From Acidobacteriota bacterium (lineage in GTDB: Bacteria > Acidobacteriota > UBA6911 > JACQSX01), in assembly GCA_036507075.1 (NCBI GenBank), contig DASXQR010000179.1, positions 1 through 57,018 on the forward strand: DNA of 57,018 bases. The letters are read 5' to 3'. Position numbers and translations under genes: made by a program. Below the pieces are notes generated by a model that was not told where the DNA came from, ran no database searches, and saw nothing but the letters and a program-made list of their open reading frames with translations. Positions 1 through 54,643 of this stretch are shown in pieces; the first letter of the stretch is position 1; each line of letters opens with the position of its first letter.

Positions 1-210
1 GATGGAGGGATGGAGGGATGGAGAGATGGAGGGATGGAGGGATGGAGGGATGGAGAGATGGAGAAGCGTCAGTTCCCTCAGTCCTTCAGTCTCTCAGTCT
101 CTCAGTCTCTCAGTCTCTCAGTCTCTCCATCCCTCAATCCCTCCGTCCCTCCGTCCCTCCATCCCTCAATCCCTCAGTCTCTCAATCCCTCCATCCCTCA
201 GTCCCTCAGT
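1..210. repeat. Inverted pair of 8-mer tandem arrays, (GATGGAGG)n then (CCTCCATC/TCTCAGTC/CCTCAATC)n; truncated by window start
   Basis: Left arm 1-62 and right arm ~76-210 are built from reverse-complementary degenerate 8-mers; same family as 21063-21182. Confidence 0.9.
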
Positions 211-446
211 CAACGGGCTTTGGGAATTTTGTGTTGAGTGATTTTTTTACTCAGCGTGTTGCGGTGAATTCCCATTGATGCGGAAGTCTTAATCAGGTTG
301 CCGCCGTTTTTAAGGAGGGATTTCTGGATGAATTGCTTTTCAAACTGCGCCTCCGCTTCGTTCCAGTAAATTCCCCGTTCCACCATTTCGCCGACAAGTT
401 CTTCCATCAAATCGCGCAAACGAGTGTTTCGTGTCATGGTTGTCAC
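210..446 (-). CDS. Small Fis-type helix-turn-helix (HTH_8) protein
   Basis: C-terminal 'FIQKSLLKNGGNLIKTSASMGIHRNTLSKKI' is a typical Fis/NtrC HTH; 4-bp overlap with the upstream PHP gene. Confidence 0.8.
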   Translation of the reverse strand: MTTMTRNTRLRDLMEELVGEMVERGIYWNEAEAQFEKQFIQKSLLKNGGNLIKTSASMGIHRNTLSKKITQHKIPKAR

Positions 447-1348
447 GCGTTGCAGTAGTCTTTAGAGCGCTTTCTCAATTCAGCCAGGATTGCGGGAGTT
501 CCCTGGCGGATAGAACCGAATTCGACATTCGGTTTGGCGCGGCCATGGAAGTCGGATCCTGCCGTGCCGATCAAGTCGAGCGACTCTGCAATAGCAAGGT
601 AGTATTGGGCCTTGAGAGAGTCGTGGTAGCTGGTCCAGACTTCCAGCCCCTCCAGCCCCATTTCTTTCAGTTGGGCGATCAGCCTCTCATCAACCTGCGT
701 GAAGCGCGCGCCGGGATGCGCCAGCACGGGAACACCTCCGAGCGAGCGTACTACCGAGATCGCCTCGGAAGCTGCCAATTCGGTCTTGGGGACGTGAGCG
801 GATTTTCCGCGCGAGAAAAAATCTCTGTAAAAGCTGCTTTCGGCCTGGGATTTCTTTTCACCTTGCAGATAAGGCAGCAGCACGGGCAGAGGATTCTTTC
901 GATACTTCTCCAGCACGGTATGTGCGATGGCAGGCCCGGTTATTGGAAGGTGGCCGAATCGGATGCGCACTTCCTCCTCGGTCACTTCAATCCCGATGGC
1001 TCGCAGGCGTTCCATCCGTCCGCGCGCCTGTTCGTCACGGCGGTTGTGAATCCGCGAGAGCAGTTGGATCAGAACCGGGGATTTGTAGTCCACAAACGGC
1101 GCCAGCAGGTGTAACTCCTTTTCGCCCAGAGCGCTGCTGATTTCCACATTGGGGATCCACTCGACAGAAGGAAAGCGGTGCTCTATTTCAGGCCGGTGCT
1201 GCAAGGCTGCGACCGTATCGTGGTCGCTGATCGCCAGTGCGATTATCCCCAGTTCTTCGGCCTTGGAGAAAAGACGATCGACCGTCCACTCACCGTCACT
1301 GCTGTAGTTGCTGTGCAGGTGCAAATCAAAGAAGGGAGCTGGTTTCAT
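443..1348 (-). CDS. PHP-domain metal-dependent phosphoesterase (TrpH/YciV-like)
   Basis: Motifs DLHLHS..SDG, SDHD, VLAHP, GSDFHG. Confidence 0.9.
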   Translation of the reverse strand: MKPAPFFDLHLHSNYSSDGEWTVDRLFSKAEELGIIALAISDHDTVAALQHRPEIEHRFPSVEWIPNVEISSALGEKELHLLAPFVDYKSPVLIQLLSRIHNRRDEQARGRMERLRAIGIEVTEEEVRIRFGHLPITGPAIAHTVLEKYRKNPLPVLLPYLQGEKKSQAESSFYRDFFSRGKSAHVPKTELAASEAISVVRSLGGVPVLAHPGARFTQVDERLIAQLKEMGLEGLEVWTSYHDSLKAQYYLAIAESLDLIGTAGSDFHGRAKPNVEFGSIRQGTPAILAELRKRSKDYCNA

Positions 1349-2238
1349 TCAAGGGTCAGTTGCCTGCCGGTCAGCAGGCGGTGAGCCTCCAGATATCTTT
1401 GTGATGTGCCTTCCACAACCTGGGGCGGCAGCTCAGGCGCCGGAGGTTTCTTGTCCCAGTCAAGAGTCTCCAGGTAGTCGCGAACGTACTGCTTGTCAAA
1501 CGAGGGCTGCGGCCGTCCCGGCTGATAATGAGCGGCGGGCCAAAAACGCGATGAATCCGGTGTCAAGACTTCATCGATCAACAGTACTTCATCCTGGTAC
1601 CAGCCGAATTCAAATTTGGTGTCGCAGATGATTATTCCGCGACTGGAGGCATAATCCGCTCCCCGCTGGTAGATTTTCAAGCTGAATTCCCGCAATTTCC
1701 TGGCCATCTCCACGCCCAACTGGTTTTCCATCTCCTCCATTGATATGTTCTCGTCGTGCCCGGTTTGCGCTTTTGTGGAAGGCGTGAAGATCGGCTCCGG
1801 AAATTTTTCCGATTCCTGCAAATCCGGCGGCAAAGGAATTCCGCAGATCTTTCCGGTCTTTCTGTAATCCTTCCATCCTGAGCCTGCCACGTAGCCGCGC
1901 ACCACGCATTCAATGGGGAAAGGCCGGGCCTTCTTTACCAGCATCGACCTGCCGATGAGTTGTTCCCGGAAACCCTGAAGTTCTTCCGGAAAGTCGCCGA
2001 TTCGTGTGGCGATGCGATGGTTGGCCACAATGTCGGAGGTCATGTTCAGCCAGAAATCGGTGAGCTGCGTCAGGACCTGGCCCTTATGGGGAATGACGTT
2101 TGGCAGCACGCAATCGAACGCTGAAATCCGATCGGTTGCGATGATTAACAGTTTGTCCTTGAATTCGTAAACGTCGCGTACTTTACCCCGGTGATGCAGG
2201 CTGAGGTTTTCGAGCTCGATGGTTGAATATGAGGGCAT
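1345..2238 (-). CDS. purC: SAICAR synthetase
   Basis: GKVRDVY, TDRISAFD, ECVVRGY, DTKFEFG, DEVLTPDSSRFW, DKQYVRDYL. Confidence 0.97.
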   Translation of the reverse strand: MPSYSTIELENLSLHHRGKVRDVYEFKDKLLIIATDRISAFDCVLPNVIPHKGQVLTQLTDFWLNMTSDIVANHRIATRIGDFPEELQGFREQLIGRSMLVKKARPFPIECVVRGYVAGSGWKDYRKTGKICGIPLPPDLQESEKFPEPIFTPSTKAQTGHDENISMEEMENQLGVEMARKLREFSLKIYQRGADYASSRGIIICDTKFEFGWYQDEVLLIDEVLTPDSSRFWPAAHYQPGRPQPSFDKQYVRDYLETLDWDKKPPAPELPPQVVEGTSQRYLEAHRLLTGRQLTLE

Positions 2239-2309
2239 TTTCTGTCGGGATTGAGTCTACAGGTTACCGTCGAGAAACGAGACTTGCAAGCGGATTAGGG
2301 GCAGTTACC

Positions 2310-2556: not shown

Positions 2557-2560
2557 ATAG

Positions 2561-7200: not shown

Positions 7201-7653
7201 TCACGGTTGGATTGAGTCCAGCATTATGGTCTCCGGCTCGGACAGCATCGGAAAGCCCGGATCTCCGGTGAGAAAGTACCGGGCTTTGGCGCTTCGGGCA
7301 CAAGACAGGTGCAGGGCGTTCCAGGCATCCAATCCATGACGCGCCTGGAGCATGGCGGCGTCGGCGGCGATCTGCTCGTCGATGGCAATGAACTTCAAAT
7401 TGGGGAAGTTGAGTAGAATCGCCTGACAGGTAATGACGGCCTCGCCGTTGCCGCCCTCCGCTACGCGGCGGAAGAGGTCTTGCAGCACCAGGATGGAAGC
7501 CAGAGCGCGCGTCTTACCATTCTCGACAGCGCCCAGGATTGCCGATGTAATGGGCTCGAATCGAGAATCGGATTCCAAATGGTATAAAAAGAAGCGTGAG
7601 TCGAAAGCCAGACACTCGCCTCTGAGCCTTTTCAACAAGTCCGCAAGCTTCAC
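7201..7653 (-). CDS. PIN-domain (VapC-like) protein
   Basis: 'LAFDSRFFLY', 'AAMLQARHGL..NALHL', 'FLTGD' fit the PIN fold; overlaps the AbrB-type gene by 4 bp. Confidence 0.75.
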   Translation of the reverse strand: MKLADLLKRLRGECLAFDSRFFLYHLESDSRFEPITSAILGAVENGKTRALASILVLQDLFRRVAEGGNGEAVITCQAILLNFPNLKFIAIDEQIAADAAMLQARHGLDAWNALHLSCARSAKARYFLTGDPGFPMLSEPETIMLDSIQP

Positions 7654-7859
7654 GAATCGTGCCTGGAAGTTAAGTTTTTTCCCAGTCGTTTCAGCATTTC
7701 GGTATAGCTCTGGACGGGCAGCATCACGATGAAATCAGACCGTCCCTGAATGACCAGTTGGGCTCCGGTGTGCAGTTGCAGCGCATCGCGGATCCCTTTG
7801 GGGATTACCACCTGCCCCTTGCTGCTGATTCTTACTACATCGCCTTTGGGAAGACTCAT
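7650..7859 (-). CDS. AbrB/MazE/SpoVT-family DNA-binding antitoxin
   Basis: 'VRISSKGQVVIPKGIRDALQLHTG' is the swapped-hairpin AbrB motif; lies directly upstream of the PIN gene. Confidence 0.85.
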   Translation of the reverse strand: MSLPKGDVVRISSKGQVVIPKGIRDALQLHTGAQLVIQGRSDFIVMLPVQSYTEMLKRLGKNLTSRHDS

Positions 7860-7918: not shown

Positions 7919-8130
7919 GGGGTTATGAAGGGGAATGAAGAGTTATGAAGAGGAGAAGGAAGGGAAGGAAGGCGGAAAGCGACTTTCCGAAAGCCGTGCA
8001 CGTAGACGTGGACGGCTTTTGTTTCGATCGCCTTGCTATTCCGCCTTCCGCCCACCGGCCGTCCTGTCGCCTTCATAACCCTTCATAACCCTTCATAACC
8101 CTTCATAACCCTTCATTCCCCTTCATAACT
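7919..8130. repeat. Nested inverted repeat: outer (GGTTATGAAG)n/(CTTCATAACC)n 10-mers, middle GGAAGGCGGAA/TTCCGCCTTCC, inner AAAGCCGT..ACGGCTTT hairpin
   Basis: Outer arms 7921-7950 and 8071-8130, inner hairpin 7990-8019. Confidence 0.85.
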
Positions 8131-8167
8131 CTTGAGCGGCCCCGCGGGCGCTGGCAAACTACGCTCA

Positions 8168-11144: not shown

Positions 11145-11285
11145 AAAAAGCCGTCTACGTCCACGTGCACGTGACACGTCAACGTCCACGCCTACGCGGT
11201 GAGCTCTGTCAAACGTTACCGTCTATATCCTGACGTCTTCGTAGACGTGGACGTTGACGTGTCACGCGCACGTAGACGGCTTTTT
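11145..11285. repeat. AAAGCCG-bounded inverted repeat built of NNACGT hexamers
   Basis: Left arm 11145-11196 matches the reverse complement of 11240-11285 unit by unit, with one extra hexamer. Confidence 0.9.
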
Positions 11286-11324
11286 CTTCGCCAGCGGAGT
11301 CGCGTTGCGTATTCCGCATTTCGT

Positions 11325-15670: not shown

Positions 15671-16123
15671 GTGAAGTGTCCGTATTGTGAGCACCTTGAA
15701 GACCGCGTCGTGGACTCGCGGGAAGGCAAGGAAGGCGATGTAATCCGCCGCCGCCGGCAGTGCCTGCGATGCGGCCGCCGCTTCACCAGCTACGAGAGGA
15801 TCGATGAGATCCCATATATGGTGGTGAAGAAAGACGGCCGGCGCGAACGCTTCGAGCGGAATAAGGTAATGGCCGGTTTGCTGCGGGCATGTGAGAAGCG
15901 TCCGGTCAGCACCGGCCAGCTCGAACAGATCGTGGATGAAATCGAACAACAGGTTCAGGACCAGCCGGATCGCGAAATCAGCTCCGAAGAGGTGGGCAAG
16001 GCAGTAATGCGCCACCTCCGCCAGCTCGATAAAGTTGCCTACGTACGCTTTGCATCGGTATATCTGGAATTCAAAGACGTCACCGAGTTCATGACCGAAA
16101 TCAATCATCTTTTTAAAAAGTAA
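15671..16123 (+). CDS. nrdR: Transcriptional repressor NrdR
   Basis: MKCPYC..DRVVDSR, RRRRQC..CGRRFTSYE, ATP-cone, VAYVRFASVY. Confidence 0.97.
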   Translation: MKCPYCEHLEDRVVDSREGKEGDVIRRRRQCLRCGRRFTSYERIDEIPYMVVKKDGRRERFERNKVMAGLLRACEKRPVSTGQLEQIVDEIEQQVQDQPDREISSEEVGKAVMRHLRQLDKVAYVRFASVYLEFKDVTEFMTEINHLFKK

Positions 16124-16275
16124 GTCGAAAGGCGAAGGTCGAAAGTCGAAAGTCGAAAGTCATACGTCGAGATGCGACTACGGACTTGGCGCGACATCGG
16201 GCGTTCGACTTTAGACTTTGGACTTTGAACTTTCGACCTTCGACTTTTGACTTTCGACCTTCGACTTTCAACTTT
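16124..16275. repeat. Inverted pair of 7-mer arrays (GTCGAAA)n ... (TTTCGAC)n
   Basis: Left arm 16124-16161 begins immediately after the nrdR stop; right arm 16205-16275. Confidence 0.9.
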
Positions 16276-19201: not shown

Positions 19202-19500
19202 TTTTGCCAAAGTTTTTCAAAGCCGCCCACATTCACGAGCACGTGCACGTCAACGTCCACGTCTCACGTCCACGACCACGTCTACAATTACGTCTACAAT
19301 CTGGACCGGTCCGGCTGCAGGGAATTGGCACCGATCATTTTTTCGTGATCGTGGACCTGGGACGTGGGCGTCGGCGTGCTCGTAAATGCAGGACGTGGAG
19401 GTTGTCGTGATCGTGCTCGTAGACGTTAGACGTAGTGGTACACGTGGTCGTGGGCAGTTTCTTGGTTGCGGCCTACGGCCGGGCTCTGTCTCTGTGGTGG
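19202..19500. repeat. Expanded AAAGCCG/NNACGT hexamer inverted element with GGTTGCGGCCTACGG tail
   Basis: Shares 5' flank CAAAGTTTTTCAAAGCCG, first units and 3' tail with 48605-48707 but has many more internal hexamers. Confidence 0.85.
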
Positions 19501-20594: not shown

Positions 20595-21104
20595 ATGAAT
20601 GCGTTCTTCTCGCGCCTGCTTCGGCGGATCGTCTCCAGTGATGAAAGCCCGGAGCGGCTTTCGCTTTCCTTCAGTATCGGCACATTCCTGAGCTTTGCGC
20701 CTCCAATCGGGCTGCATACGCTCATCGGGCTGGCGATCGCCTATTTCTTCCGTCTCAACAAGGCTGCCATGCTGGTGGGAATCTATGTGAATAACCCTTG
20801 GACTATTGTTCCCTATTACGCGTTTGCCACCTGGGTGGGAATCAAATTGACCGGATTGCCCAGCATCGTGGCATTTCCCGACATGGGCATACGGCAATTG
20901 CTCAACCGCGAGTTTTGGATTTATCTTGCGGCTCAATGGCGCGTACTGATCCCCATAACCGTAGGTTCGACAGTTCTAGCCGTTTTGATCGGCCTAGCGA
21001 CCTACCCGATCATGCTGATGCTGATCCGGCGCTATCGCAGGAGGCTGGGCCTTACGGGGAAGGAGGGACCGAGGGATGGAGGGATGGAGGGATGGAGGGA
21101 CTGA
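20595..21104 (+). CDS. DUF2062 family membrane protein
   Basis: 'ESPERLSLSFSIG', 'P.IGLHT', 'RLNK', 'NNPWT'; last codons derive from the downstream repeat. Confidence 0.85.
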   Translation: MNAFFSRLLRRIVSSDESPERLSLSFSIGTFLSFAPPIGLHTLIGLAIAYFFRLNKAAMLVGIYVNNPWTIVPYYAFATWVGIKLTGLPSIVAFPDMGIRQLLNREFWIYLAAQWRVLIPITVGSTVLAVLIGLATYPIMLMLIRRYRRRLGLTGKEGPRDGGMEGWRD

Positions 21105-21209
21105 GGGATGGAGGGATGGAGGGATCTCAGTCTCTCAGTCCCTCCGTCTCTCAGTCTCTCAGTCCCTCCGTCTCTCAGTCCCCTTCACAACCTTCCCCTT
21201 CATAACCCC
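21052..21209. repeat. Spacerless inverted 8-mer arrays (GATGGAGG)n/(TCTCAGTC,CCTCCGTC)n with outer CCCTTCATAACC-type layer
   Basis: Left arm 21063-21125, right arm 21125-21182, then CCCTTCACAACC..CCCTTCATAACC. Confidence 0.85.
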
Positions 21210-22962: not shown

Positions 22963-23982
22963 ATGAAAAGTCTCTTTACCTCGGCGTTGGCGTTGGCCTT
23001 GACGCTCACTCCGGGCTACGCGATGCAGGCTGCCCAATCCAGCCAGTCGCAGGGCCAGACCACACAACCGGCTCAAAAACCGCCACGCGTGCTCGGCCAG
23101 CCGCAGACGCGCGAGGAATATGACGCCTACGACGCCATTACCAAGGCCGCCGATCTGCAGCAGCGAGCGAAGCTATCGGAGGACTTTCTCCAGAAGTTTC
23201 CCGACTCCGGCCTGGCGCCGTTTGTTCATCAGATCGCTGCCACCACTTACCAGCAACTTAATAATTTTGAAAAGCTGGCCGAACATGGAGAAGCAGCGCT
23301 TAAAGAGATTCCATCTCCGGGCGATGCCGTGCTTCTGACCATCCTTTCCAGCGCATACGCGGACCGGGGAAAACCGGATCTGGCGCTGGAGCGCGCAGAA
23401 AAGGCGGCCAAGGGCATCGAGAGTCTGCAGACACCGCCCAACATTGACCCTGCCGAGTTCGCGAAAGGGAAGAATCAATTGCTCGCTACAATCTATTCGG
23501 CAAAAGGCGTGGCTTACCTGGTAAAGGCCCAGGAAGCCCGTGCCAAGAAAACCGCCTCTCCTCCGCCCGCCGATCCGGCTCAGAAAGACCCGCCCGATCC
23601 GAATCTGGACCTGGCGATCACCAATCTGAACAAAGCGCTTGAGCTCAACCCCAAGGATGATTTCGTCTATTACCGGCTGGGGATCGTGTACACGTTGAAG
23701 AACGACGCCGAGAATGCCACCAGCGCATACGCCAGATCGGTTGCCATCGGCGGAAACGAAGTGGTTGGGAAAATGGCTCGCGAAAACCTCAAGGCGGTCA
23801 CTCGCGCTGTCTTGAAGTCCAAGGAAGGAGCCGATCCTTCCGATCAGAAGATTACCGATGCCATGGAGCAGGCGATCTTTAAGGCGAAAGGGACGCTCAA
23901 TCAGCCGGTTCCTCCTCCTCCTGCTGCGCCGCCTGCCGCGCCGCCTGCCGTGCCGGACCAAAGCAAGCCGCCCGGATTCTAA
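22963..23982 (+). CDS. Secreted TPR-repeat protein
   Basis: RBS GGAGG, signal peptide, TPR 'ALELNPKDDFVYYRLGIVY', Pro/Ala-rich tail. Confidence 0.8.
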   Translation: MKSLFTSALALALTLTPGYAMQAAQSSQSQGQTTQPAQKPPRVLGQPQTREEYDAYDAITKAADLQQRAKLSEDFLQKFPDSGLAPFVHQIAATTYQQLNNFEKLAEHGEAALKEIPSPGDAVLLTILSSAYADRGKPDLALERAEKAAKGIESLQTPPNIDPAEFAKGKNQLLATIYSAKGVAYLVKAQEARAKKTASPPPADPAQKDPPDPNLDLAITNLNKALELNPKDDFVYYRLGIVYTLKNDAENATSAYARSVAIGGNEVVGKMARENLKAVTRAVLKSKEGADPSDQKITDAMEQAIFKAKGTLNQPVPPPPAAPPAAPPAVPDQSKPPGF

Positions 23983-24094
23983 GCAGATTCCGAGTCATGC
24001 AGGAGACATCCTCCTGCATGACCAGGCTGCCGCCGTGGCCGCCGCCGAACATAAAGAGCGGCTCGGGCAACCCGCCCAATCGACCTGTATTCGT

Positions 24095-24808
24095 ATGGAT
24101 TTCTCTGCGTTGGAAGATGCAATCCAGTACAAATTCCAGAATGTCGCGTTCCTCGAAAGAGCGCTGACTCACAAATCCTACTGCTACGACTGCCCTGACG
24201 GCCCGCCATTGCACTACGAGGCGCTCGAGTTTTTGGGGGACGCAATTCTCGGATTCGTCATCAGCGATCTGTTGTTTCAGCAAATCCCATCGTCTACCGA
24301 AGGGCAGCTATCCAAGGTCAAAGCCCACCTGGTGAGCGCTGGAAATCTTCTGCAGTTCGCGCAGAAGCTGCAACTGGGGCAGTACCTGCGGCTCAGTCAT
24401 GGCGAAGAAAAGACGGGAGGCCGCGGCAAGAAGGCTCTGCAGGTGGACGCTTTCGAGGCGTTGATTGCCGCGATTTATCTGGACGGCGGAATTCAGGAGG
24501 CGCGCCGGTTCATCGCCTCCCAGTTCGGCGACGCGCTTCATGAGCTTGCGATGGAGAGTTTCACCTCTCCCGATTACAAGTCGCGACTGCAGGAAAGGCT
24601 TCACCAGCTCGGTCATGGTGAGCCGATGTACACGGTTCTGGAAGAGTCGGGGCCGGATCACAGCAAGCGCTTCACCGTGCAGGTAGTGAGCGGACGGAGC
24701 GTGCTGGCCTGCGGAGAGGGAAGCACAAAAAAACAGGCGCAGCAAGAGGCTGCCGAAGCGGCTCTGCTGAAGCTGATGGAAAGCTCCGCGTCAGGAACGT
24801 CCCAGTAG
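24095..24808 (+). CDS. rnc: Ribonuclease III
   Basis: ALTHKS, EALEFLGDAIL, DAFEALIAAIYLDGG, dsRBD DYKSRLQE..GPDH; ATG at 24095. Confidence 0.96.
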   Translation: MDFSALEDAIQYKFQNVAFLERALTHKSYCYDCPDGPPLHYEALEFLGDAILGFVISDLLFQQIPSSTEGQLSKVKAHLVSAGNLLQFAQKLQLGQYLRLSHGEEKTGGRGKKALQVDAFEALIAAIYLDGGIQEARRFIASQFGDALHELAMESFTSPDYKSRLQERLHQLGHGEPMYTVLEESGPDHSKRFTVQVVSGRSVLACGEGSTKKQAQQEAAEAALLKLMESSASGTSQ

Positions 24809-25794: not shown

Positions 25795-26207
<413 letters not shown>

Positions 26208-26208
<1 letters not shown>

Positions 26209-27611: not shown

Positions 27612-27613
27612 AA

Positions 27614-27852
27614 GAATGTTGAGTGGGGAATGGGGAATCGGAATGGGAATGAAGAATGCGGAATGGGGAATGCGGAATGGGGAATGCGGAATGCAGATTG
27701 CCAGCCCGCAGGCCGCGGTCCCTCAAATGCAGATTTCGGTATGCGCAATGCCGAATAGGGAGGGGCGATTGGCCTGCTTTGAAGAATCAAGTTTGACTGT
27801 ATTCCGCATTCCGCATTCCGCAATCCCCATTCCCCATTCCGCATTCCGCATT
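27614..27852. repeat. Inverted pair of 7-mer arrays (GAATGCG/GAATGGG)n ... (CATTCCG/CATTCCC)n
   Basis: Left arm 27614-27694, right arm 27800-27852. Confidence 0.9.
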
Positions 27853-27882
27853 CGGATTTAATGATTCAACGCTAGCGGGCAC

Positions 27883-31292: not shown

Positions 31293-31415
31293 GTAGAGAC
31301 GCGCAACCCGCGCGTCTCTGCGTCGGGACATTTCAAGGCGTAGAGACGCGGCATGCCGCGTCTTAGCTCAGACGCGACATGTCGCGTCTCTACAGGCGAC
31401 ATGTGGCGTTTCTAC
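31293..31415. repeat. Cluster of four GTAG-type REP hairpins (two forward, two reverse)
   Basis: GTAGAGACGCG..CGCGTCTC at 31293 and 31340; ..GTCTCTAC ending 31393 and degenerate ..TTTCTAC ending 31415. Confidence 0.85.
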
Positions 31416-31433
31416 ACGCGCTGCCGCTGTGAC

Positions 31434-31527: not shown

Positions 31528-33633
31528 ATGCGTTTTAAAGCTTTAGCGCTCGCACTGCTCGGTTCGGCAACCCTTTCATTTGCCCAAACGATTGACTTTA
31601 AAGGTCCTTACGGGGGAGATGTCCGCTCGCTTGCGCTCAATCCCCACGCCCCTGGAGTGCTGATGGTCGGTACAAGCGACGGTCAGATCTTCCGCTCGCA
31701 GGACTCGGGCCTGCGCTGGGAGCGCACCGCCGGGGTGGGTCGAGGGGTGGTGGTCGACAACATTGAGTTTGATCCCAATATTCCCGGCCGCGTGTACGTG
31801 GGCACCTGGGACATGCGAAGGCTCAACGGCGGAGACCTCTATCGATCCGAAGATGGCGGCGCAACCTGGAGTGCTGTGCCCATTGCAGCCTCCGGCATCA
31901 GCATTCGCGCTCTGGCCATCGCGCCCAGCGACAGCAACACGATTCTGGTGGGCACGCTGGACGGCGTTTATCTGACGCGTGATGCGGGAAAAAGCTGGAG
32001 TTCAATTTCAGCGGGGGAGAGTGGATTAAAGCAGGTTGAATCGGTGGCCATCGATCCGAAAGACAGCAATGTCTTTTACGCAGGTACCTGGCATCTGGGC
32101 GCGCGCAGCTCCGACGGAGGAAAGACCTGGACCTGGATCAAACAGGGAATGATTGAGGACAGCGACCTGTTTTGCATTTCGATACATCCAATCACTCCTG
32201 ACGTAATTTATGCCAGCGCATGCAGCGGCGTTTACAAGTCGGCCAACCGTGGTACCCAGTGGGTGAAGCTGCGAGGCGGCCTCACTTCGCAAAATCGCCG
32301 TACGCATGTCATTTATATCGACCCCGTAAATCACAATCGCCTGTTTGCCGGCACCACCACGGGCCTTTATCTGTCCGAAGACGCAGGGACAAGCTGGCGC
32401 CTGATCACGCCTGCCGCGCTGGTGATCAATGGAGTCGAAGTCAATCCGCAAAATAATAAAGAAGTATATCTGGCAACTGAAGATGCGGGGATCCTGAAGA
32501 GCACAGACGGAGCGAAGACCTTTTTTCCATCCAACGACGGTTTCCTGCATCGCCAGATCTCGCAGATTGTGGCGGACCCTTCCGATAAGAATCGTCTTTA
32601 TGCCGGCTTGTTGTTCGATCGCAGCTACGGCGGATTTTTCATCAGCGAGGACGGCGGCAAAAACTGGCGTCAGAGCAACAAGGGAATTGCTCTGGAAAAC
32701 CTGGACATTTATTCCATTCTGCCGGGCAAGGACAAAGTCATTTACATCGGAACCGATGATGGGATTTACGCCAGCAAGGACGGTGGGGAGAATTGGGCAA
32801 AGCTGGACGCGAAGGCGCCTCCCCAGGATCTGCCGCAGCCGCTTGATGAAAATGGCGAGCCAAAGCGCGTTGCCGCGCCGGCCAAAACCGCGGCGGCGAA
32901 GCGGGCTGTCAAGCCCAAGGCGCCTCCTGCCATGCCGTTTCAGGTGAAGATCTTCCAAATGCAATTTCTTTCGCCGGACGAAAAGCAGATTATGGCCGCC
33001 ACGCAGGAAGGGCTTTTCAAAGGAGATCTGGAAAGCGGGATGTGGAACCGCATTCCGCTTCCCGAGTACCTTGGTCCGATCAACCAGCTTCATGTCGACG
33101 CCGGCAAAAATCTGATCCTGGCCGCTATCGGCACCAGGCTTTTTATATCCAACGACGGCGGACAAATCTGGAGCATAATAAAGGAAAGTTTGCCGGCTGA
33201 TATCCACGCCTTGCAGCCAATCTGGAGCATAACAGCGGAAAGTTTGCCGGCTGATATCCGCGCCTTGCAGCCTGTTCCTGCCGAGAAGGTGCTGCTTGTA
33301 GGGACGCGCTCAGGGCTTTACCGCAGCGTGGACAACGGTGAGGCCTGGACGCGAATCACCAAGGGAATTCCGTTTGTCGACATCAGCGTGCTCCGCATGA
33401 CCGAAGATGGCTCCATCTATGCTGCCGATTCGCTCAACGGAAATCTTTATGTCTCGCGGGATGCGGGTTCGAGCTGGAATGCTCTGACGCAGGGAAACAA
33501 CTCCAGCATTTCGTCGCTGCTAACCGGCCCGCCGGGCGGCAACATCATCGTGGGCTCTACTTCGGACGGGATTTACTCGGTCACGCCGAAGTTATCGCCG
33601 CCGGCGACTCCGGTCGCAGGGCAGCAGGATTAA
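31528..33633 (+). CDS. Secreted BNR/Asp-box repeat beta-propeller protein (Ycf48/VPS10-like)
   Basis: Signal peptide; many S-x-D-G-G-x-T/S-W Asp boxes; ATG at 31528. Confidence 0.85.
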   Translation: MRFKALALALLGSATLSFAQTIDFKGPYGGDVRSLALNPHAPGVLMVGTSDGQIFRSQDSGLRWERTAGVGRGVVVDNIEFDPNIPGRVYVGTWDMRRLNGGDLYRSEDGGATWSAVPIAASGISIRALAIAPSDSNTILVGTLDGVYLTRDAGKSWSSISAGESGLKQVESVAIDPKDSNVFYAGTWHLGARSSDGGKTWTWIKQGMIEDSDLFCISIHPITPDVIYASACSGVYKSANRGTQWVKLRGGLTSQNRRTHVIYIDPVNHNRLFAGTTTGLYLSEDAGTSWRLITPAALVINGVEVNPQNNKEVYLATEDAGILKSTDGAKTFFPSNDGFLHRQISQIVADPSDKNRLYAGLLFDRSYGGFFISEDGGKNWRQSNKGIALENLDIYSILPGKDKVIYIGTDDGIYASKDGGENWAKLDAKAPPQDLPQPLDENGEPKRVAAPAKTAAAKRAVKPKAPPAMPFQVKIFQMQFLSPDEKQIMAATQEGLFKGDLESGMWNRIPLPEYLGPINQLHVDAGKNLILAAIGTRLFISNDGGQIWSIIKESLPADIHALQPIWSITAESLPADIRALQPVPAEKVLLVGTRSGLYRSVDNGEAWTRITKGIPFVDISVLRMTEDGSIYAADSLNGNLYVSRDAGSSWNALTQGNNSSISSLLTGPPGGNIIVGSTSDGIYSVTPKLSPPATPVAGQQD
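33166..33273 (+). repeat. In-frame 54-bp tandem duplication within the BNR gene
   Basis: IWSIIKESLPADIHALQP followed by IWSITAESLPADIRALQP; near-identical DNA. Confidence 0.92.
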
Positions 33634-33639: not shown

Positions 33640-33978
33640 GGGTTGACGGGTTTCCCGAGTTACGAGTTTTCGAGTTGACGAGTTGACGAGTTTCGGGTTT
33701 ACGAGTTTCGGGTTGAGGAGTTTCGGGTTGACGGGTTACGGGTTGAGGAGTTTCGGGTTGGAGCAGGAAGTTCTTAGACTGCATAACCACAAACTGACCG
33801 CACGCGCGTGCGCAGCTAATGAGTAACGGAGAGCCCCCACTGTAGCAATAGAAGTACTGACTCGGAACCTCGGAAACCTGGAACTCGGAACTCGGAACTC
33901 GGAAACTCGGAACCTCGTAAACCCGAAACTCGTAAACCCGAAACCCGTCAACCCGAAACCCGTCAACCCGAAAACCCC
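33640..33978. repeat. Inverted pair of 7/8-mer arrays (GAGTTTC/GGGTTGAC)n ... (GAAACTC/GTCAACCC/CTCGGAA)n
   Basis: Left arm 33640-33760, right arm 33860-33978, ~100-bp spacer. Confidence 0.9.
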
Positions 33979-34455: not shown

Positions 34456-34488
34456 TTTCGCGCTTTCGCGCCTTCGCGGTTCCGGCTT

Positions 34489-37316: not shown

Positions 37317-37798
37317 CGGAAAGCGGAAGGCGGAAAGCAGGAGGCAGGAGGCAGGAGACAGGAGGCAGGAGGCGGGAGGCGGGAGACAGGAGGCGGGAGG
37401 CGGGAGGCGGAAGATCCAACGTCAGCCGAACCGCGCGCGTGAGCAAGCGGACTCTCGATGCAGCAATTCTCGGGACGTCCGCGCTGGTCCTCACCGCAGA
37501 GTCGCTAAGGACGCTGAGAAGCCGCGGAGTTTCAGCGCCTCTGCGCCGGCTCGGCGGTCTTAGCGCCTCTGCGGTGAAAGAAATTTGTCGATCACCAGCA
37601 TGAGGGTTGTTTTGGCCGGTGGTAACCGGACGCATGGAGGGTCCGCTTGCTTACGCGCGCGGTTCGGCTGTCGGTGGATGCTCCCCCTTTCCGCCTTCTG
37701 CCTTCTGCCTCCTGCCTTTTGCCTCCTGCCTTCTGCCTCCCGCCTCCTGCCTTCTGCCTCCCGCCTCCCGCCTCCTGCCTTCCGCCTTCCGCTTTCCG
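37317..37798. repeat. Three-layer nested palindrome: outer (GGAGGCA/G)n/(TGCCTCC)n, middle REP pair, inner CACCGCAGAG..CTCTGCGGTG hairpin
   Basis: Arms 37317-37413 / 37689-37798; REPs 37423-37460 / 37632-37670; inner 37492-37576. Confidence 0.9.
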
Positions 37799-39582: not shown

Positions 39583-39714
39583 TCTTTGCGTGCTTGGCGT
39601 TCTTGGCGGTTCCGTTTTTGTCCAAATGCCAAGCGAAATCAAAACATCCTCCACAACAATGCCACAGAGCTGAAAATAAATAGCTTGGTGTTCTTGGCGC
39701 TCTTGGCGGTTCAA
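39583..39714. repeat. Two solo arms of a 9-mer family (CTTGGCGTT)n ending GGCGGTTC
   Basis: 39583-39611 and 39684-39713; third copy at 44276-44307. Confidence 0.65.
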
Positions 39715-44107: not shown

Positions 44108-44211
44108 CATTCAAGTGGCAAGTGGGCAGGGGCAAGAGTTACCAGTCGTGGTGCTGCCGAAACGTCCTGCCCACCGGTAACTCTTGCCCCTGCCCACTTG
44201 CATCTTGAATG
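44108..44211. repeat. Near-perfect 36-bp inverted repeat with CAAGTGG/GGGCAGG-type units
   Basis: 44108-44143 versus 44176-44211, two mismatches; abuts the RDD start. Confidence 0.85.
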
Positions 44212-44347
44212 TAGCAGATGGTCGATCCGGGATCAACGCGCCTTTCGTGTTTGAACGGCCGGAGTGAAAAAGAAATTCTTGGCGGTCTTCCGTTCTTGGC
44301 GGTTCAATTTTTTCTCATCTTCGTCCCCGCGAAAGTAGAATTGACGC

Positions 44348-44683: not shown

Positions 44684-44962
44684 GAAGGGGAATAAAGGGG
44701 GAGGAGAGCCGGCAACCGAACTGCGCGCGTAAGCAAGCGGACCTTCGATACAGGACTTCTTATTAATTTAATGTTAATCGTTAGTTGGGAGGGTCCGCTT
44801 GCTTACGCGCGCGGTTCGGCTGCCGGCTCTCCCCCCCGTCATAACCCTTCCTCCCCCTTCATTACCCTTCCGTCCCCTTCCTCCCCCCTTCACAAGAAGG
44901 GACAGTCCCCCATTAAAAGGGGACTGTCCCTCATTAAAAAGGGGACTGTCCCTCATTAAAAA
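44684..44962. repeat. Composite: GAAGGGG/CCCTTC arms around a REP pair, followed by GGGACAGTCCC/GGGACTGTCCC repeats
   Basis: REPs ~44704-44746 and ~44789-44835 (CCGAAC.GCGCGCGTAAGCAAGCGGACC); 22-bp direct repeat 44919-44940 / 44941-44962. Confidence 0.85.
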
Positions 44963-48583: not shown

Positions 48584-48604
48584 TCTAGATCTCCGATTCT
48601 TGTC

Positions 48605-48707
48605 TTTTGGCAAAGTTTTTCAAAGCCGTCGACGTTCACGAGCACGTGCACGTCAACGTCGACGGCTTTTGGGTTGCGGCCTACGGTTGGGCTGCGCCTC
48701 TGTGGTG
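48605..48707. repeat. Short allele of the AAAGCCG/NNACGT element
   Basis: Hairpin AAAGCCGTCGACGTT..AACGTCGACGGCTTT with the same flanks as 19202-19500. Confidence 0.85.
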
Positions 48708-48805
48708 AAGTCTTCCCCAAAGGGGTAACACAAACTGAACCACTACCGACCTGTTGGATTGGTGAATCTTTGTGGCTTGGTGGCTTTGTGGCCAGTCGGT
48801 TCCGC

Positions 48806-50805: not shown

Positions 50806-52365
50806 GTGCAAAAATTCGATTTTGTCATCATCGGAAGCGGCGTGGCAGGATTAAGGGCGGCCATCGAACTAAGCGATCACGGAACGGTGGCGCTGATTAC
50901 CAAATCAAAGCCCGACGAGTCTAACACCGAGTACGCGCAAGGCGGTGTGGCCGTGGCCATGAGCGACGAAGACGACATTTCGCTTCACTATGAAGACACC
51001 ATCCAGGCGGGCGACGGTTTTTGTGATTCGGAAGCCGTGCGGATCCTGGTTGAGGAGGGAAGAGAGCGCATCCAGGAGCTGATCGAATGGGGCACAAAAT
51101 TCGACCGGGAGGGACCGCAATTGTCTTTTACGCGCGAGGCGGCGCACAGCCGGGACCGGGTGATTCACGCGCGCGGCGACTCGACCGGCAAGGAAATTGT
51201 GCGCTCTTTGCTGCAGTCGCTGCAGGGTCGCGAAAAAGTTACGCTGCTGGACTACACCTTCGCGCTTGATCTCACAGTCGAACGGGACAACTGCAAGGGA
51301 GTGAAATTCATCTCGGAACGCTCCGGGCGAATCGAAGAAGTTCAGTGCAAGGCGGTCTTGATTTGCACCGGCGGGGCAGGCCAGATCTATCGCGACACGA
51401 CCAACCCGGATATTGCAACCGGCGATGGACCAGCCATGGGCTTCCGCGCCGGAGCGGAACTGGTCGATCTGGAATTCTTTCAGTTTCATCCCACGGCGCT
51501 GGCGCTTGCCGGAGCGCCTCGTTTTCTGCTCACCGAGGCCCTGCGGGGGGAAGGAGGCGTGCTGCTCAACATGAGCGGGGAGCGCTTCATGCCGCGCTAT
51601 CATCCCGCCGGTGAGCTTGCCCCGCGCGACGTGGTGAGCCGCGCTATTTTCACGGAGACCGCCAAAACGGGCGCGCCGGTGTTTCTGGATATGTCCGGCA
51701 AGGATCCGGCACAGTTGAAGAACCGTTTTCCCAGGGTGTACGAGACCTGCCTGCGACTCGGTCTGGATCTGACAAGTGATCGAATTCCCGTGCAGCCGGC
51801 CGCGCACTACATGATGGGTGGCATCAGGACAGACCTCAGCGGAGCCTGCTCGCTCAAAAATCTGTATGCCGCCGGAGAAGCCGCCTGCACCGGAGTGCAC
51901 GGCGCCAATCGCCTTGCCAGCAATTCACTGCTGGAAGGGTTGGTTTTTGGCGCGCGCGCCGCCAGGGCGATGCTGAAGGGGAAATCATTTCAATCCGAAG
52001 CGGCGGGAGAGAAGACAGTGAACATTATTTCCAACGCGGCGGTCCCCATGCGCGAGGCGACGCGTTCGCTGATGACCAGCCACGTGGGTATCGTGCGCAA
52101 TGCCCCGGATTTAAAGTATGCTGCTTCCAGGCTCGGAATGGGCCCGGCCGCGGCTGACCGCCCCGCCGCCGAAGCCAACAACATGTCGACGCTCGGCTAT
52201 CTGATCGCCACCGCGGCGCTGCTGCGGCAGGAAAGTCGCGGCGCGCACTATCGCTCGGATTTCGCGCAGCGCAATGATAAGCAATTCCGCAGGAGAATTA
52301 TTTTGAAATTGAGGGAGTACAATCAAATTGCCATCGCCACCGTGCCTGTCAGGGGGGGGCCATGA
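50806..52365 (+). CDS. nadB: L-aspartate oxidase
   Basis: GSGVAG, YAQGGVA, EAAHS..RVIH, QFHPT, EALRGEG, ELAPRD, HGANRLASNSLLE. Confidence 0.96.
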   Translation: MQKFDFVIIGSGVAGLRAAIELSDHGTVALITKSKPDESNTEYAQGGVAVAMSDEDDISLHYEDTIQAGDGFCDSEAVRILVEEGRERIQELIEWGTKFDREGPQLSFTREAAHSRDRVIHARGDSTGKEIVRSLLQSLQGREKVTLLDYTFALDLTVERDNCKGVKFISERSGRIEEVQCKAVLICTGGAGQIYRDTTNPDIATGDGPAMGFRAGAELVDLEFFQFHPTALALAGAPRFLLTEALRGEGGVLLNMSGERFMPRYHPAGELAPRDVVSRAIFTETAKTGAPVFLDMSGKDPAQLKNRFPRVYETCLRLGLDLTSDRIPVQPAAHYMMGGIRTDLSGACSLKNLYAAGEAACTGVHGANRLASNSLLEGLVFGARAARAMLKGKSFQSEAAGEKTVNIISNAAVPMREATRSLMTSHVGIVRNAPDLKYAASRLGMGPAAADRPAAEANNMSTLGYLIATAALLRQESRGAHYRSDFAQRNDKQFRRRIILKLREYNQIAIATVPVRGGP

Positions 52366-53537
52366 GTCAGGTCACGCATCTGGAATGCTCGCGCTGTTTG
52401 AAGGAATACCCGCCTCGCACTGTGATCAATTTATGCGAATGCGGCGGGCCGTTGCTGGTGCGCTACAACCTGCGAAAAGTGAAGCGCAGCGTGACAAAAA
52501 CCGAGTTGGAGGGGCGTCCTTGGAATATGTGGCGTTACTTTGAAGCCATGCCGCTGGATTCTCCCGCCGAGATGGTGTCTCTTTCCGAAGGGGGAACGCC
52601 CATCATTCCGCTGAGGAAACTAGGGGCGGAGCTCGGCCTGCGAAGGCTCTTTTTGAAGGATGAGGCCGACAATCCCACCGGAAGCTTCAAAGCAAGGGGG
52701 CTTTCGGCGGCTGTGAGCATGGCCAAGGCTCTCGGCTTAACGCAGTTGGCCATGCCGAGCGCAGGCAATGCCGGAGGCGCGCTGGCCGCATACGCGGCGC
52801 GCGCGGGCCTGCAGTCTTTTCTGTTCATGCCCAGGGAAACTCCCCAGGCCAACATCGTGGAAGCCAGAGTGTACGGAGCGCAGGTTGAACTGGTTGACGG
52901 CAGCATTTCGGATGCCGGCGCGCGCATGAACCGGGTGCGGCAACCGGGCTGGTTTGACATGTCGACTCTGAAGGAGCCCTACCGGATCGAAGGCAAAAAG
53001 ACCATGGGGTACGAAATCGCCGAGCAGTTCCAGTGGGCTCTTCCCGACGTAATTCTTTATCCCGCCGGAGGGGGAACGGGATTGATCGGAATGTGGAAGG
53101 CTTTTGAGGAGATGCAGGAATTGAGCTGGACTCAAGCCAGGCCGCCTCGAATGGTTGCCGTCCAGGCAGCCGGATGCGCGCCGGTCGTCAAGGCATTTCA
53201 GGAGGGAAAGAATTCCGTTGAGCCGTGGCCCAATCCCAAAACGATCGCCAGCGGCCTGAGAGTACCTGCGCCAATCGGCGATGCGCTCATGCTTGGCGTG
53301 CTGCGCAAATCCGAAGGCACGGCGGTGGCTGTGGACGACGAATCAATCCGGCGCGAGATTTTCGAGGCAGGCAAAATGGAAGGGATTTTCTTTTCCCCGG
53401 AAGGAGCGTCAACCATTGCTGCCTTGCGCAAGCTGAAAGCCGACAACTGGCTCAGCGCGGACCAGTCGATTGTCATTTTCAACACGGGAAGCGGGTTGAA
53501 GTATCTCGAAGTGACAAGTGGCGAGTGGCGAGTTTGA
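52362..53537 (+). CDS. thrC: Threonine synthase (PLP fold II)
   Basis: EGGTP, NPTGSFKARG, SAGNAG, EGKKTMG, NTGSGLKY; stop lies inside the downstream repeat. Confidence 0.88.
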   Translation: MSQVTHLECSRCLKEYPPRTVINLCECGGPLLVRYNLRKVKRSVTKTELEGRPWNMWRYFEAMPLDSPAEMVSLSEGGTPIIPLRKLGAELGLRRLFLKDEADNPTGSFKARGLSAAVSMAKALGLTQLAMPSAGNAGGALAAYAARAGLQSFLFMPRETPQANIVEARVYGAQVELVDGSISDAGARMNRVRQPGWFDMSTLKEPYRIEGKKTMGYEIAEQFQWALPDVILYPAGGGTGLIGMWKAFEEMQELSWTQARPPRMVAVQAAGCAPVVKAFQEGKNSVEPWPNPKTIASGLRVPAPIGDALMLGVLRKSEGTAVAVDDESIRREIFEAGKMEGIFFSPEGASTIAALRKLKADNWLSADQSIVIFNTGSGLKYLEVTSGEWRV

Positions 53538-53694
53538 ATGCGGAATTTTGAATGCGGAATGCGGAATAGTTTCCGATTTTTACTTCGGCGTAATAATTAT
53601 TCCGCATTCCGAAATCCGCATTTATAACATTCCGCATTCACAATTCCGCATTCAAACTCGCCACTCGCCACTTGTCACTTGCCACTCGACACTT
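53509..53694. repeat. Two-layer inverted repeat: outer (AGTGGCG/AGTGACA)n, inner (GAATGCG)n, between convergent thrC and truA
   Basis: 53509-53561 matches the reverse complement of 53628-53680 with one mismatch; extra units on the right arm. Confidence 0.92.
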
Positions 53695-54486
53695 CTAGAC
53701 CCACAGCACCGGCTTAAGCTCGCCCCGTCCTTCGTCTTCGGCGTAGGTCACTTTCTCCAGAAAAAGCCCGGACGCGGGGGCAGTCCACTCGGCGGCCGAG
53801 CGTTTCCGCTGCTCGAGTATCTTGCCGAATTCCTCCACTGTCAGGTCTTCGAGCCCAACTTCCACCATTGACCCGACCAGCCGCCGCACCATTTTCCATA
53901 AAAAGTGGGAGGCTCCCATCCGCACCAGTATCAGGTCATTCGCGCACAGCAGCGAGCACTCGTACATTTCCACCAATGTGGATTTCTTCTCGCCGCGACT
54001 GTCGCCAAAGGCGGCAAAATCATGTTTTCCCACGATTAATTCTGCCGCGCGCTCCATGCGCTTCAGATTGAGCGGCCCCTTGACCCACCAGACGAATCTC
54101 TTTGAGAAGGAAGTCTTGCGCCTGGCGATTTGATACAGGTAGTAGCGGCGCAGGGCGTCATGGCGCGCGTGAAAACCGGCTGGAGCGGGTTCTATCCGGA
54201 TGATGGAAATATCCGTGGGAAGAGACTGGTTCAGCTTTATCCGCAGCGAGTCAAGATCGGTTTTTGATTTTGAATCCGAAATTCGGAACTTGAGATGCGC
54301 CACCTGCGCCAGCGCGTGCACCCCGGCGTCGGTCCGTCCCGCGCCCCCGATTTCCACGTCGGTCGCCAGCACCTCGCGCGCGGCTTCAATCAGTGCGTCC
54401 TGCACGGCGCGGCTGTTCTTCTGGCTCTGCCATCCGTGGTACCGGGTCCCGTCGTACTCCAATGTGAGTTTCAGAGTCGTTGCCAT
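53695..54486 (-). CDS. truA: tRNA pseudouridine(38-40) synthase
   Basis: YDGT.YHGWQ, GRTDAGVHA, FHAR, FLWKMVR, TAPASGLFL. Confidence 0.95.
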   Translation of the reverse strand: MATTLKLTLEYDGTRYHGWQSQKNSRAVQDALIEAAREVLATDVEIGGAGRTDAGVHALAQVAHLKFRISDSKSKTDLDSLRIKLNQSLPTDISIIRIEPAPAGFHARHDALRRYYLYQIARRKTSFSKRFVWWVKGPLNLKRMERAAELIVGKHDFAAFGDSRGEKKSTLVEMYECSLLCANDLILVRMGASHFLWKMVRRLVGSMVEVGLEDLTVEEFGKILEQRKRSAAEWTAPASGLFLEKVTYAEDEGRGELKPVLWV

Positions 54487-54507
54487 AGCGTCATCATTGT
54501 TACATAA

Positions 54508-54643
54508 GAGTGGGAGAGCAGGAGAGTGGAGAGACGGCCCGATGGCCGTCTCCGGCGAAGTCGACGGCAGGGCAATCCCGCGATATTCCCTGAGACGTCC
54601 CGCAGGACGTCTCTCCGCGTGGCGAAGCAGAGCTTCGCCTTAC
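54508..54643. repeat. REP-like doublet of the GAGACG family plus a GGCGAAGC/GCTTCGCC hairpin
   Basis: 54528-54553 and 54588-54618; the latter matches 10077-10110 in reverse complement with a compensatory stem change. Confidence 0.75.

Follow-up and report, generated by a model that had tools for sequence, protein, structure and literature searches.

What are the inverted pairs of short tandem repeats that occupy so many intergenic gaps of contig DASXQR010000179.1, and how did they come to lie there? This 57,018 bp contig (C179) of the Acidobacteriota bacterium assembly GCA_036507075.1 was analyzed in its entirety and is called the window below; the assembly comprises 6.12 Mb in 233 contigs with 56% G+C, and the public sequencing runs that contain the window DNA are soil metagenomes, with no RNA run among them. 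The answer that we favor, and to which our analysis gives about an even chance, is that the window hairpins form part of a genome-wide set of 416 or more palindromic repeat loci with arms built of tandem 7-9 nt units, and that they are likely non-autonomous elements, similar to REPINs (repetitive extragenic palindromic [REP] sequence doublets forming hairpins) or MITEs (miniature inverted-repeat transposable elements), which are copied as whole hairpins by an enzyme acting in trans.

The initial annotation of the window named a number of places with arrays, and Tandem Repeats Finder (TRF) detects arrays at all of them: 1-63/69-211, 2310-2378/2509-2556, 7925-7977/8070-8133, 11152-11190, 16122-16177/16204-16275, 19235-19300, 21057-21125/21125-21180, 27613-27701/27801-27853, 33656-33760/33860-33977, 37317-37414/37689-37804 and 53517-53567/53599-53693. 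An inverted-repeat scan finds the arms to be reverse-complementary, for example over 97 nt at 87% for 37317-37413 versus 37702-37798 and over 53 nt at 98% for 53509-53561 versus 53628-53680. When the DNA of the 27 window gaps of at least 40 nt was folded and its minimum free energy compared with that of 30 shuffles (which preserve mononucleotide composition only), 18 gaps gave z values of -4.4 or lower, and none of 200 shuffles folded as well as 53505-53685 (z -16.0) or 27605-27865 (z -8.9). The annotation's statement that most sizeable gaps hold facing arrays thus stands in so far as these 18 gaps fold far beyond their shuffles, but a strict array criterion pairs only 8 loci, the others being weaker or non-array palindromes. 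Similarly, the hairpin that it placed at 7921 is present but has a degenerate left arm (7925-7977, 69% matches), and its CAAGTGG repeat at 44108 is a palindrome (44108-44205) of only about two units. Rfam 15, applied at gathering score, has no match in the window.

Do the arrays pair more often than chance allows? Genome-wide, TRF reports 2712 arrays, most commonly of period 7 (952), 8 (519) and 9 (348). Neighbors that share words within 500 nt of one another are inverted in 429 cases and direct in 15 (1955 arrays of at least 28 nt), and at 500 nt to 5 kb the two orientations are equal (173 inverted, 190 direct), so that the excess is confined to short distances and the pairing withstands a genome-wide check against chance. 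De-duplication leaves 425 pairs at 416 loci, which cover 86.8 kb or 1.4% of the genome with a median arm of 53 nt and a median total length of 186 nt. At first pass 61% of the period-7, 44% of the period-8 and 36% of the period-9 arrays are paired; among the 674 7/8-mer arrays that are not, 219 pair with a weaker inverted array, 19 lie near a direct copy and 436 lack any partner. Only about two thirds of the 7/8-mer arrays are paired overall.

The largest family is built of the unit AATGCGG (107 loci, 68 of them with a spacer of 33-50 nt), and its commonest form has an arm of 31-32 nt (about 4.5 units) on one side of a roughly 43 nt core and the mirrored arm on the other. The unit in second place in the arm is a fixed variant, ATTTCGG, and the core is non-palindromic and is found in either orientation. 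Arms are 90-93% identical to this master form, pairwise similarity of the cores is about 49%, and the flanks show no relationship from one site to another; in a logo of the flanks the palindrome continues into TTCCG...CGGAA, and no direct repeat was seen in the flanks of these elements. The commonest spacers are 40-46 nt long. Because a fixed non-repeat variant unit and a homologous core recur at unrelated sites, it is whole, finished elements that appear to have been copied, and judged from these sequences the AATGCGG population fits non-autonomous dispersed elements. A defined form is seen in the CACGAATTT 9-mer family too, with ends TTGAG...CTCAA. AATGCGG arms also enclose other inner hairpins (a junction of AAAGCT with a GTC-type array is common to at least 4 loci), and whole AATGCGG elements lie inside GTCCGTT hairpins and inside back-to-back 9-mer hairpins, so nesting occurs in both orders. 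An inner palindrome is present in 59 of the 110 spacers of at least 100 nt; we use this count since a strict count of nested arrays gives 7 cases only, TRF merging the layers.

If the elements are copied whole, the copied unit might be the folded single strand of the entire hairpin, by analogy with REPINs, which are moved by HUH tyrosine transposases. A new copy would insert into the short spacer 3' of a gene or into the loop of a hairpin already present. Replication slippage would then lengthen and shorten the arms, and the instability of long palindromes would lead to the deletion of halves. In transcripts the stems would behave as REP stem-loops do at the 3' ends of mRNAs and would serve as substrates of RNase III, which would be a by-product of the spread and not its cause.

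Could the hairpins instead have been born where they stand? In that case they would be structural signals kept by the host, short palindromes 3' of genes (terminators, RNA 3' stem-loops or RNase III sites) that lengthen by slippage, with template switching between the arms keeping them complementary and with the families arising by convergent growth and conversion rather than by transposition. We think this unlikely, but several features of their placement agree with it. On a heuristic map of 4189 open reading frames (ORFs; about 79% of the genome, with over-extended starts) the 416 loci fall into 237 tandem, 88 convergent and 63 divergent gaps, 25 contig edges and 3 possibly intragenic positions; all three kinds of gap are therefore occupied, as the annotation had said of the window. 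A stop codon lies a median of 7 nt from the hairpin edge (10 nt or less on 180 of 413 sides), in line with the annotation's remark that hairpins often touch stop codons, and the hairpin overlaps the ORF end on 84 of the 413 sides, while the longest-ORF start codon is a median of 25-45 nt away despite the over-extended starts. Convergent gaps are filled, with the nearest stop codon at a median of 1 nt and the farther one at 20.5 nt. Hairpins that lie against stop codons would be transcribed as 3' stem-loops. REP sequences have a stabilizing effect on upstream mRNA, and those no farther than 15 nt from a stop codon cause ribosomes to stall. Of gaps of at least 100 nt, 17.6% of tandem, 16.7% of convergent and 11.0% of divergent ones have a hairpin, so that the elements are somewhat rarer between divergent genes (11.0% versus 17%), again as local growth 3' of genes would have it.

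The arms themselves also behave in part as local growth predicts. Their lengths are correlated (rho 0.51, median difference 18 nt), and unit variants are mirrored at 36% of 237 loci when compared with arms of shuffled unit order, strongly so in the ACGGGTT and CCGGGTT families; variation within the unit is concentrated at one or two positions. A public contig across 31903-34436 lacks exactly 7 nt, one unit, in the right arm of the 33640-33978 hairpin, and the window encodes an RNase III (23858-24808). The two arms are not significantly asymmetric (26 versus 13, p 0.135, in the unbiased set; an arm-seeded search gave a stronger figure that its own cut-offs bias).

Local growth, however, cannot give rise to the AATGCGG master form, in which a fixed variant unit and a homologous non-repeat core recur at unrelated sites. 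Nor do the 7/8-mer hairpins look like terminators: a T-tract adjoins 62 of their 644 sides versus 211 of 2773 random intergenic 14-mers. Predicted RNA stability is alike in the two strands (sense better at 129 and antisense at 107 of 236 tandem-gap loci, p 0.34), and on this ground we rejected the idea of RNA-level selection acting through G-U pairs. The orientation of the core is not linked to that of transcription (8 same, 17 opposite, p 0.11). Palindromic flanks beyond the outermost arrays are found at 24 of 409 loci compared with 101 of 2247 other gaps, little above background. Copying into spacers is also supported by the rarity of intragenic placement (the 3 possible cases among 416 loci) in a genome that is about 79% ORF.

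Orthologous gaps in relatives bear on the same choice, with the reservation that the nearest genomes are distant members of other genera with 69-77% DNA identity in genes (G001 and the like below; G000 is the genome studied here) and that the closest metagenome match (L013) is 78% identical in protein. Between purC and SMC, G000 has the GAATGCG hairpin, G004, G002, G020 and G022 are empty, and G005 has a GGCTCCA hairpin with an inner palindrome. Between the S55 and Reg_prop genes there are ACGT and CTTTGTGG arrays in G000, a two-layer AAGAATG hairpin in G001 and nothing in G002 and G004. The gap between the extracytoplasmic function (ECF) sigma factor gene and hyp108 holds 342 nt of repeats in G000 and is 86 and 64 nt long and repeat-free in G001 and G002, and the RDD-NFACT gap is 3 nt in G000 versus a 266 nt palindrome in G001. 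The arrays 3' of the BNR gene (33640-33978) are absent in L013; at 34456-34488 the window keeps only a C-rich arm, and L013 has a full GCGAAGG hairpin there; and G002 retains only the G-rich arm where G001 has a full ATTGCGG hairpin. Over the seven orthologous gaps compared, together with those between purC and SMC and in L013, sites are either empty, occupied by other units or reduced to a lone arm. The variation between relatives that the annotation asked about is thus present, and orthologous gaps that are so often empty speak against hairpins kept by the host, since the structure would seem to be dispensable. All four genomes searched within the family contain AATGCGG-like and GGAGGCA-like arrays, with a differing arm version (ATTGCGG units in G001) and without an exact match to the G000 arm; the unit motif is common to other genera of the family, each with its own version of the arm.

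The hairpins do not all obey the same rules. The G-rich arm precedes the C-rich arm in 263 period-7 hairpins and follows it in 1, and the corresponding numbers are 64:4 for period 8 (327 versus 5 for the 7/8-mers jointly), 2:23 for period 9 and 0:4 for period 6. By unit type, 91 of 115 are G-first and 16 C-first; the types are TRF consensus strings and have probably been split too finely. In the independent set of weaker partners, the partner lies downstream of 105 and upstream of 2 G-rich arrays, and upstream of 77 and downstream of 10 C-rich ones, which in total keeps the G-first polarity (182:12). A 9-mer half element ending in GGTGAA is present in 436 copies and forms 60 back-to-back and 3 face-to-face pairs. 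Among loci of relatives and of other soil bacteria, 282 kb in all and selected blind to repeats, the seven distinct inverted heptamer pairs were 5 G-first, 1 C-first and 1 neutral. The share of C-first hairpins is 10.6% in tandem, 10.7% in convergent and 12.5% in divergent gaps; this equality points to the making or moving of the elements rather than to local selection, and because of it we rejected the idea that Rho causes C-first hairpins to be selected against inside operons.

The ACGT-hexamer hairpins form a class of their own with A and T tracts, a T-tract adjoining 5 of 8 sides, and look like (two-way) terminators from their sequence; a G+C-rich stem followed by a U-tract, as in an intrinsic terminator, is found only in this class and not in the 7/8-mer hairpins. 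The NNACGT arrays that the annotation counted among the hairpins are therefore present, but as a separate, terminator-like group. A family of GC-rich palindromes (90 half sites genome-wide and 26 pairs, in one orientation throughout) is represented in the window at 37424, at 44710 and at the contig end. The "one architecture" with many units of the annotation is accordingly better described as several classes: 7/8-mers and 9-mers of opposite polarity, terminator-like ACGT hexamers, and, besides these, GC-rich palindromes and REPs tagged with GTAG. The window elements are as follows (no strand is assigned to any of them):

1-211: 8-mer hairpin of the GATGGAGG type with the G-rich arm first, truncated where the contig begins; of the two arms the right one is longer, with unit variants that are no mirror image of those on the left
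2310-2556: GAATGCG 7-mer hairpin with a 130 nt spacer, between purC and SMC and ending 4 nt from the SMC stop codon
7921-8133: GGTTATGAAG 10-mer hairpin, the left arm of which is degenerate; a small ACGT hairpin and GGAAGG/CCTTCC arrays lie inside (z -8.8)
11147-11287: ACGT-hexamer hairpin with an A-tract and a T-tract at its sides, the shape of a two-way intrinsic terminator
16122-16275: AAGTCGA 7-mer hairpin with the G-rich arm first, in a divergent gap
19219-19455: ACGT-hexamer arrays with an imperfect inverted partner, between Lon and a purM-like gene (z -6.6)
21057-21207: GGGATGGA 8-mer hairpin without a spacer, the unit variants differing between arms
27613-27853: GGAATGC 7-mer hairpin that begins 1 nt past the stop codon of a sigma-54 regulator gene, with a diverged family core at the end of the spacer
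31294-31420: about four small GTAG-tagged REP-type hairpins (GTAGAGACGCG), a separate repeat class, with one copy at the same site in a relative
33640-33978: GAGTTTC/GGGTTGA 7/8-mer hairpin that begins 6 nt past the BNR gene stop codon
34456-34488: lone C-rich arm of the TTTCGCGC type, immediately past a stop codon
37317-37804: three-layer hairpin of GGAGGCA 7-mer arms enclosing a GC-rich palindrome (GAACCGCGCGCGT...) and, innermost, a 9-mer hairpin; it abuts the amidase stop codon (z -23.9)
39583-39708: two unpaired CTTGGCG-type 9-mer arrays (z -0.7)
44108-44320: CAAGTGG-type palindrome (44108-44205), then a lone 9-mer half element ending in a T-run (44277-44320) (z -11.8)
44690-44962: GC-rich palindrome (of the family at 37424) inside G-rich and C-rich arms, then three 22 nt GGGACTGTCCC REP units (44899-44962)
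48622-48792: ACGTGC hexamer array (48632-48653) and CTTTGTGG array, between the S55 and Reg_prop genes (z -4.4)
53509-53693: two-layer hairpin with outer AGTGGCG and inner GAATGCG arms, the left arm overlapping the end of a PALP gene
56702-57018: palindrome at the contig end with 110 nt arms (92%) that are not tandem arrays, a GC-rich core (GAACCGCGCGCGT...) and an inner hairpin (z -17.6)

The PALP-family gene (52362-53537) runs into the hairpin, taking its final 8 residues and stop codon from the left arm (53509-53561), and the orthologues in G001 and G003 align only up to residues 383 and 385 of 391. Since the alignment is lost at the arm, the element seems, on this comparison, to have replaced the C-terminal tail of the gene. 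The predicted start of a 524-aa ORF (55168-56742) falls in an arm of the 56702-57018 palindrome. The assembly breaks at hairpin repeats themselves, and public contigs likewise end there, most of the apparent joins being other copies of the same arms; the contig start (1-130, short loop included) repeats the end of contig C52 (from C52:7164 onward), which indicates that the assembly broke within this hairpin and that C52 and C179 are probably neighbors.

The 42 window ORFs scanned against Pfam are housekeeping genes (SMC, purC, Lon and RNase III included) or have no assignment. The Lon protein is 49-63% identical to its counterparts in metagenome-assembled genomes labeled Acidobacteriota, Nitrospirota and other phyla, and so does not by itself point to one phylum. 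A PIN-domain gene and the small ORF 5' of it (7201-7859), probably a toxin-antitoxin pair, adjoin the 7921-8133 hairpin. The longest ORF of the RNase III gene (23858-24808) overlaps the 3' end of the preceding TPR gene by 125 nt, and its product is the enzyme that would cut long stems if they were transcribed. Just 5' of the sigma-54 response regulator gene, 25795-26208 is a 137-aa ORF mostly of GAA/GAC/GAT triplet repeats (an acidic low-complexity protein), and the BNR/sortilin-like gene contains a 54 nt tandem repeat (33145-33272; 2.3 copies, 85-92% matches).

Is the polarity itself a trace of how the hairpins are made? It could be if an activity added G-rich repeat units to the 3' ends at both sides of a break that were then joined, so that the G-strands converge like those of fused telomeres, and if later breaks at the center of the palindrome added inner layers. 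The near-absolute polarity of the 7/8-mers (263:1 and 64:4), its recurrence in the independent weaker pairs (182:12), its indifference to gene context and the units themselves, which are G-rich and 7-8 nt long, would all suit such an activity, as would families in which the arms share only the unit and are unequal in length; the same convergent arrangement has been described in Xanthomonas (PMC4692102). We nevertheless regard it as very improbable. Fixed arms and homologous cores at many sites bespeak the copying of finished elements, more than 100 unit types would need as many templates, and polarity is reversed in the 9-mer hairpins (23:2) and in the GGTGAA-ended half elements (60:3). Of the reverse transcriptase matches in the genome the strong one is a group II intron enzyme and the second is weak. 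For these reasons the trans-acting repeat-writing enzyme suggested by the annotation finds no support here.

More broadly, the 7/8-mer hairpins might be made or moved by an undescribed hairpin-specific machinery (perhaps tied to the Avd-like four-helix-bundle proteins encoded in the arms, or else an activity adding repeats to 3' ends) with a chemistry that forces the G-strands to converge as in fused telomeres, and a sister system of opposite polarity might serve the 9-mers. This we hold to be decidedly doubtful; if true, it would amount to a novel kind of mobile or self-writing DNA in bacteria, spread across phyla and lacking any recognizable transposase.

Might the hairpins rather be what is left of small cassettes, the true mobile units, that once held a four-helix-bundle gene (TIGR02436, of the 23S rRNA intervening sequence [IVS] type) or a GxxExxY gene between their arms? 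TIGR02436 has 8 matches at 7 loci genome-wide, and at 6 of the 7 a 7/8-mer array lies within about 340 nt. Three fragmentary bundle genes (on C73, C231 and C17) are enclosed by a G-arm and the matching C-arm, two intact copies (C88 and C225) have a G-arm on each side and a C-arm after the second, and one further bundle gene is followed by a C-arm only; the unit families beside bundle genes have gene-less members as well. GxxExxY has 6 matches, and 3 of these genes (C140, C59 and C152) adjoin the 9-mer arrays TTCGTGAAA, CACGAAGA and CACAAAGAT; with bundle genes beside 7/8-mers and GxxExxY genes beside 9-mers, there is a hint that each small gene family goes with one repeat class. An origin of the hairpins from such cassettes is nonetheless quite unlikely. 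The 7 bundle loci compare with 416 gene-less hairpins, no TIGR02436/PF05635 match was found on the window contig or in the Pfam scan of its 42 ORFs, the commonest spacers (40-46 nt) are the family core and not gene debris, and the intact bundle genes split a G-arm instead of lying in the loop. A scan for cargo between matched arms 250-2500 nt apart gave 16 G-first pairs; besides two broken bundle genes, the inner ORFs scanned against Pfam comprised one housekeeping gene (Dus), one DUF2442 protein and some small ORFs without a match; cargo of this kind was therefore set aside. The annotation's suggestion of empty sites or non-autonomous members of mobile cassettes is retained for the non-autonomous members, given the AATGCGG master form at dozens of unrelated sites, but is weak for the empty cassettes.

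A mobilizing enzyme would be the natural counterpart of copied elements. The Pfam scan of the 42 window ORFs found no transposase, reverse transcriptase or HUH enzyme, in agreement with the annotation, which saw no candidate there. There are 12 Y1_Tnp matches genome-wide, for the most part divergent single genes that have inverted repeats of their own at their flanks. One of them, C85:28590-29603 (L077), has its own inverted ends and lies between GAAT-type G-rich arrays and a complete AATGCGG hairpin; it alone among the 12 is flanked on either side by GAAT-type arrays, and no arrays surround its closest relatives in G001 (72%) and G006 (56%). A link of the AATGCGG family to a REP-associated tyrosine transposase (RAYT) was rejected on this account. 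The layout G-arm, gene, G-arm, C-arm is common to the C85 gene and the intact bundle genes on C88 and C225. Another Y1 transposase gene, C163:36363-37109, is flanked by the palindrome GGGACTGTCCC, a separate GGGACAGTCCC REP, in the classic REP/RAYT arrangement; the same palindrome makes up the three 22 nt units at window 44899-44962.

Copying of whole hairpins by an enzyme in trans thus remains the reading that we prefer, and the following points weigh against it. No mobilizing enzyme was found in the genome, the Y1 link being unsupported (one C85 gene of 12, with array-free relatives). There are 115 unit types, many of them at a single locus, which would be hard to serve with sequence-specific transposases. 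In some families (AGGGATGG, mirrored in 1 of 23) the arms have the unit in common but not the order of its variants, which fits in-place growth of arrays as well. The polarity rule, G-first for 7/8-mers and C-first for 9-mers, is not accounted for by copying of whole hairpins, and the high conservation of the arms could come instead from conversion between copies or from binding of a host factor. Finally, no empty site with near-identical flanks was found; the nearest genomes have a DNA identity of only 69-77%, and neither an insertion event nor a duplicated or preferred target could be seen among them.

Whichever way they spread, the hairpins occupy at least 1.4% of the genome, and hundreds of genes have one against their stop codon, sometimes with the final codons rewritten; short-read assemblies break at them. 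The polarity rule and the pattern of conserved arms around a loose core are handles for finding the enzyme that moves or maintains them, and for testing whether operon mRNAs are cut or stabilized at the stems.

How do these elements compare with systems already known? We found no description of multi-family tandem-armed hairpins in the literature (subscription journals not covered). REPINs consist of two REPs around a less conserved spacer and are moved by RAYT transposases (Bertels and Rainey 2011, PMC3116915), and REPs carry a GTAG or CGTC tag at one end (Di Nocera 2013). The hairpins resemble REPINs in having conserved inverted sequences around a looser spacer, a length of about 100 nt, extragenic positions, tens to hundreds of copies with a master, and lineage-specific versions; the AATGCGG family has the inverted repeats, looser spacer, hairpin fold and many extragenic copies around a master. 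They differ in that the arms are 7-9 nt tandem arrays that grow and contract, over 100 unit types occur side by side, elements are nested, and polarity is set by unit length. No flanked cognate RAYT was found for AATGCGG in this genome, and the end tag is present only in the separate family of true GTAG-type REPs (31294-31420, GTAGAGACGCG). MITEs are likewise short, non-coding and dispersed, with inverted ends, and presumed to be moved in trans; in the elements here no target duplication is visible (the palindrome runs on into TTCCG...CGGAA), and no parent insertion sequence with the same ends was found, although no systematic search for one was made.

The ORF-bearing 23S rRNA IVS (the Coxiella IVS with S23p) has inverted arms that form a long stem around a small four-helix-bundle gene (PMC4990558). 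Four-helix-bundle genes of our genome adjoin the same kinds of arrays as the hairpins, but the window hairpins are gene-less and lie between protein genes; bundle genes between matching arms, none in the window, are found in 3 of the 7 copies elsewhere, all broken. Abundant intergenic tandem heptamers are also shared with the short tandemly repeated repetitive (STRR) sequences of cyanobacteria, of which few pairs are noted in Nostoc (PMC4692102), and with the TAACTGA repeats of Beggiatoaceae (169 direct sets and one indirect set; PMC4679880); those are mainly direct arrays, however, and inverted pairing is the rule here.

The closest parallel to the pairs, which as such are already published, is in Xanthomonas: X. 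campestris and X. axonopodis have 70 and 75 convergent pairs of GGGAATC heptamer arrays on opposite strands, mostly of four units, on average 28 nt from the neighboring 5' ORF, under-represented between divergent genes and variable in length between species (Rehm et al. 2015, PMC4692102). Its authors found no function for the arrays, emphasize G-quadruplexes and state that no detailed literature on heptamer repeats existed at the time (PMC4692102). The hairpins share with them the intergenic heptamer arrays, the convergent pairs near the end of the upstream ORF (here 263:1 G-first, at a median of 7 nt from the stop codon) and the lower frequency in divergent gaps. Where Xanthomonas has one unit and a G-quadruplex reading, this genome has numerous unit families, cores of defined form, nested elements and 9-mers of opposite polarity, and G3 tracts are absent from the main units AATGCGG, GTCCGTT, AAGTCGA and GGTCATT and present only in some others (e.g. 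GGGATGGA and GGGTTAC). Since the same design of heptamer arrays with converging G-rich arms is found in Xanthomonas, the long-known excess of heptamer repeats in bacteria may largely consist of this one kind of hairpin element.

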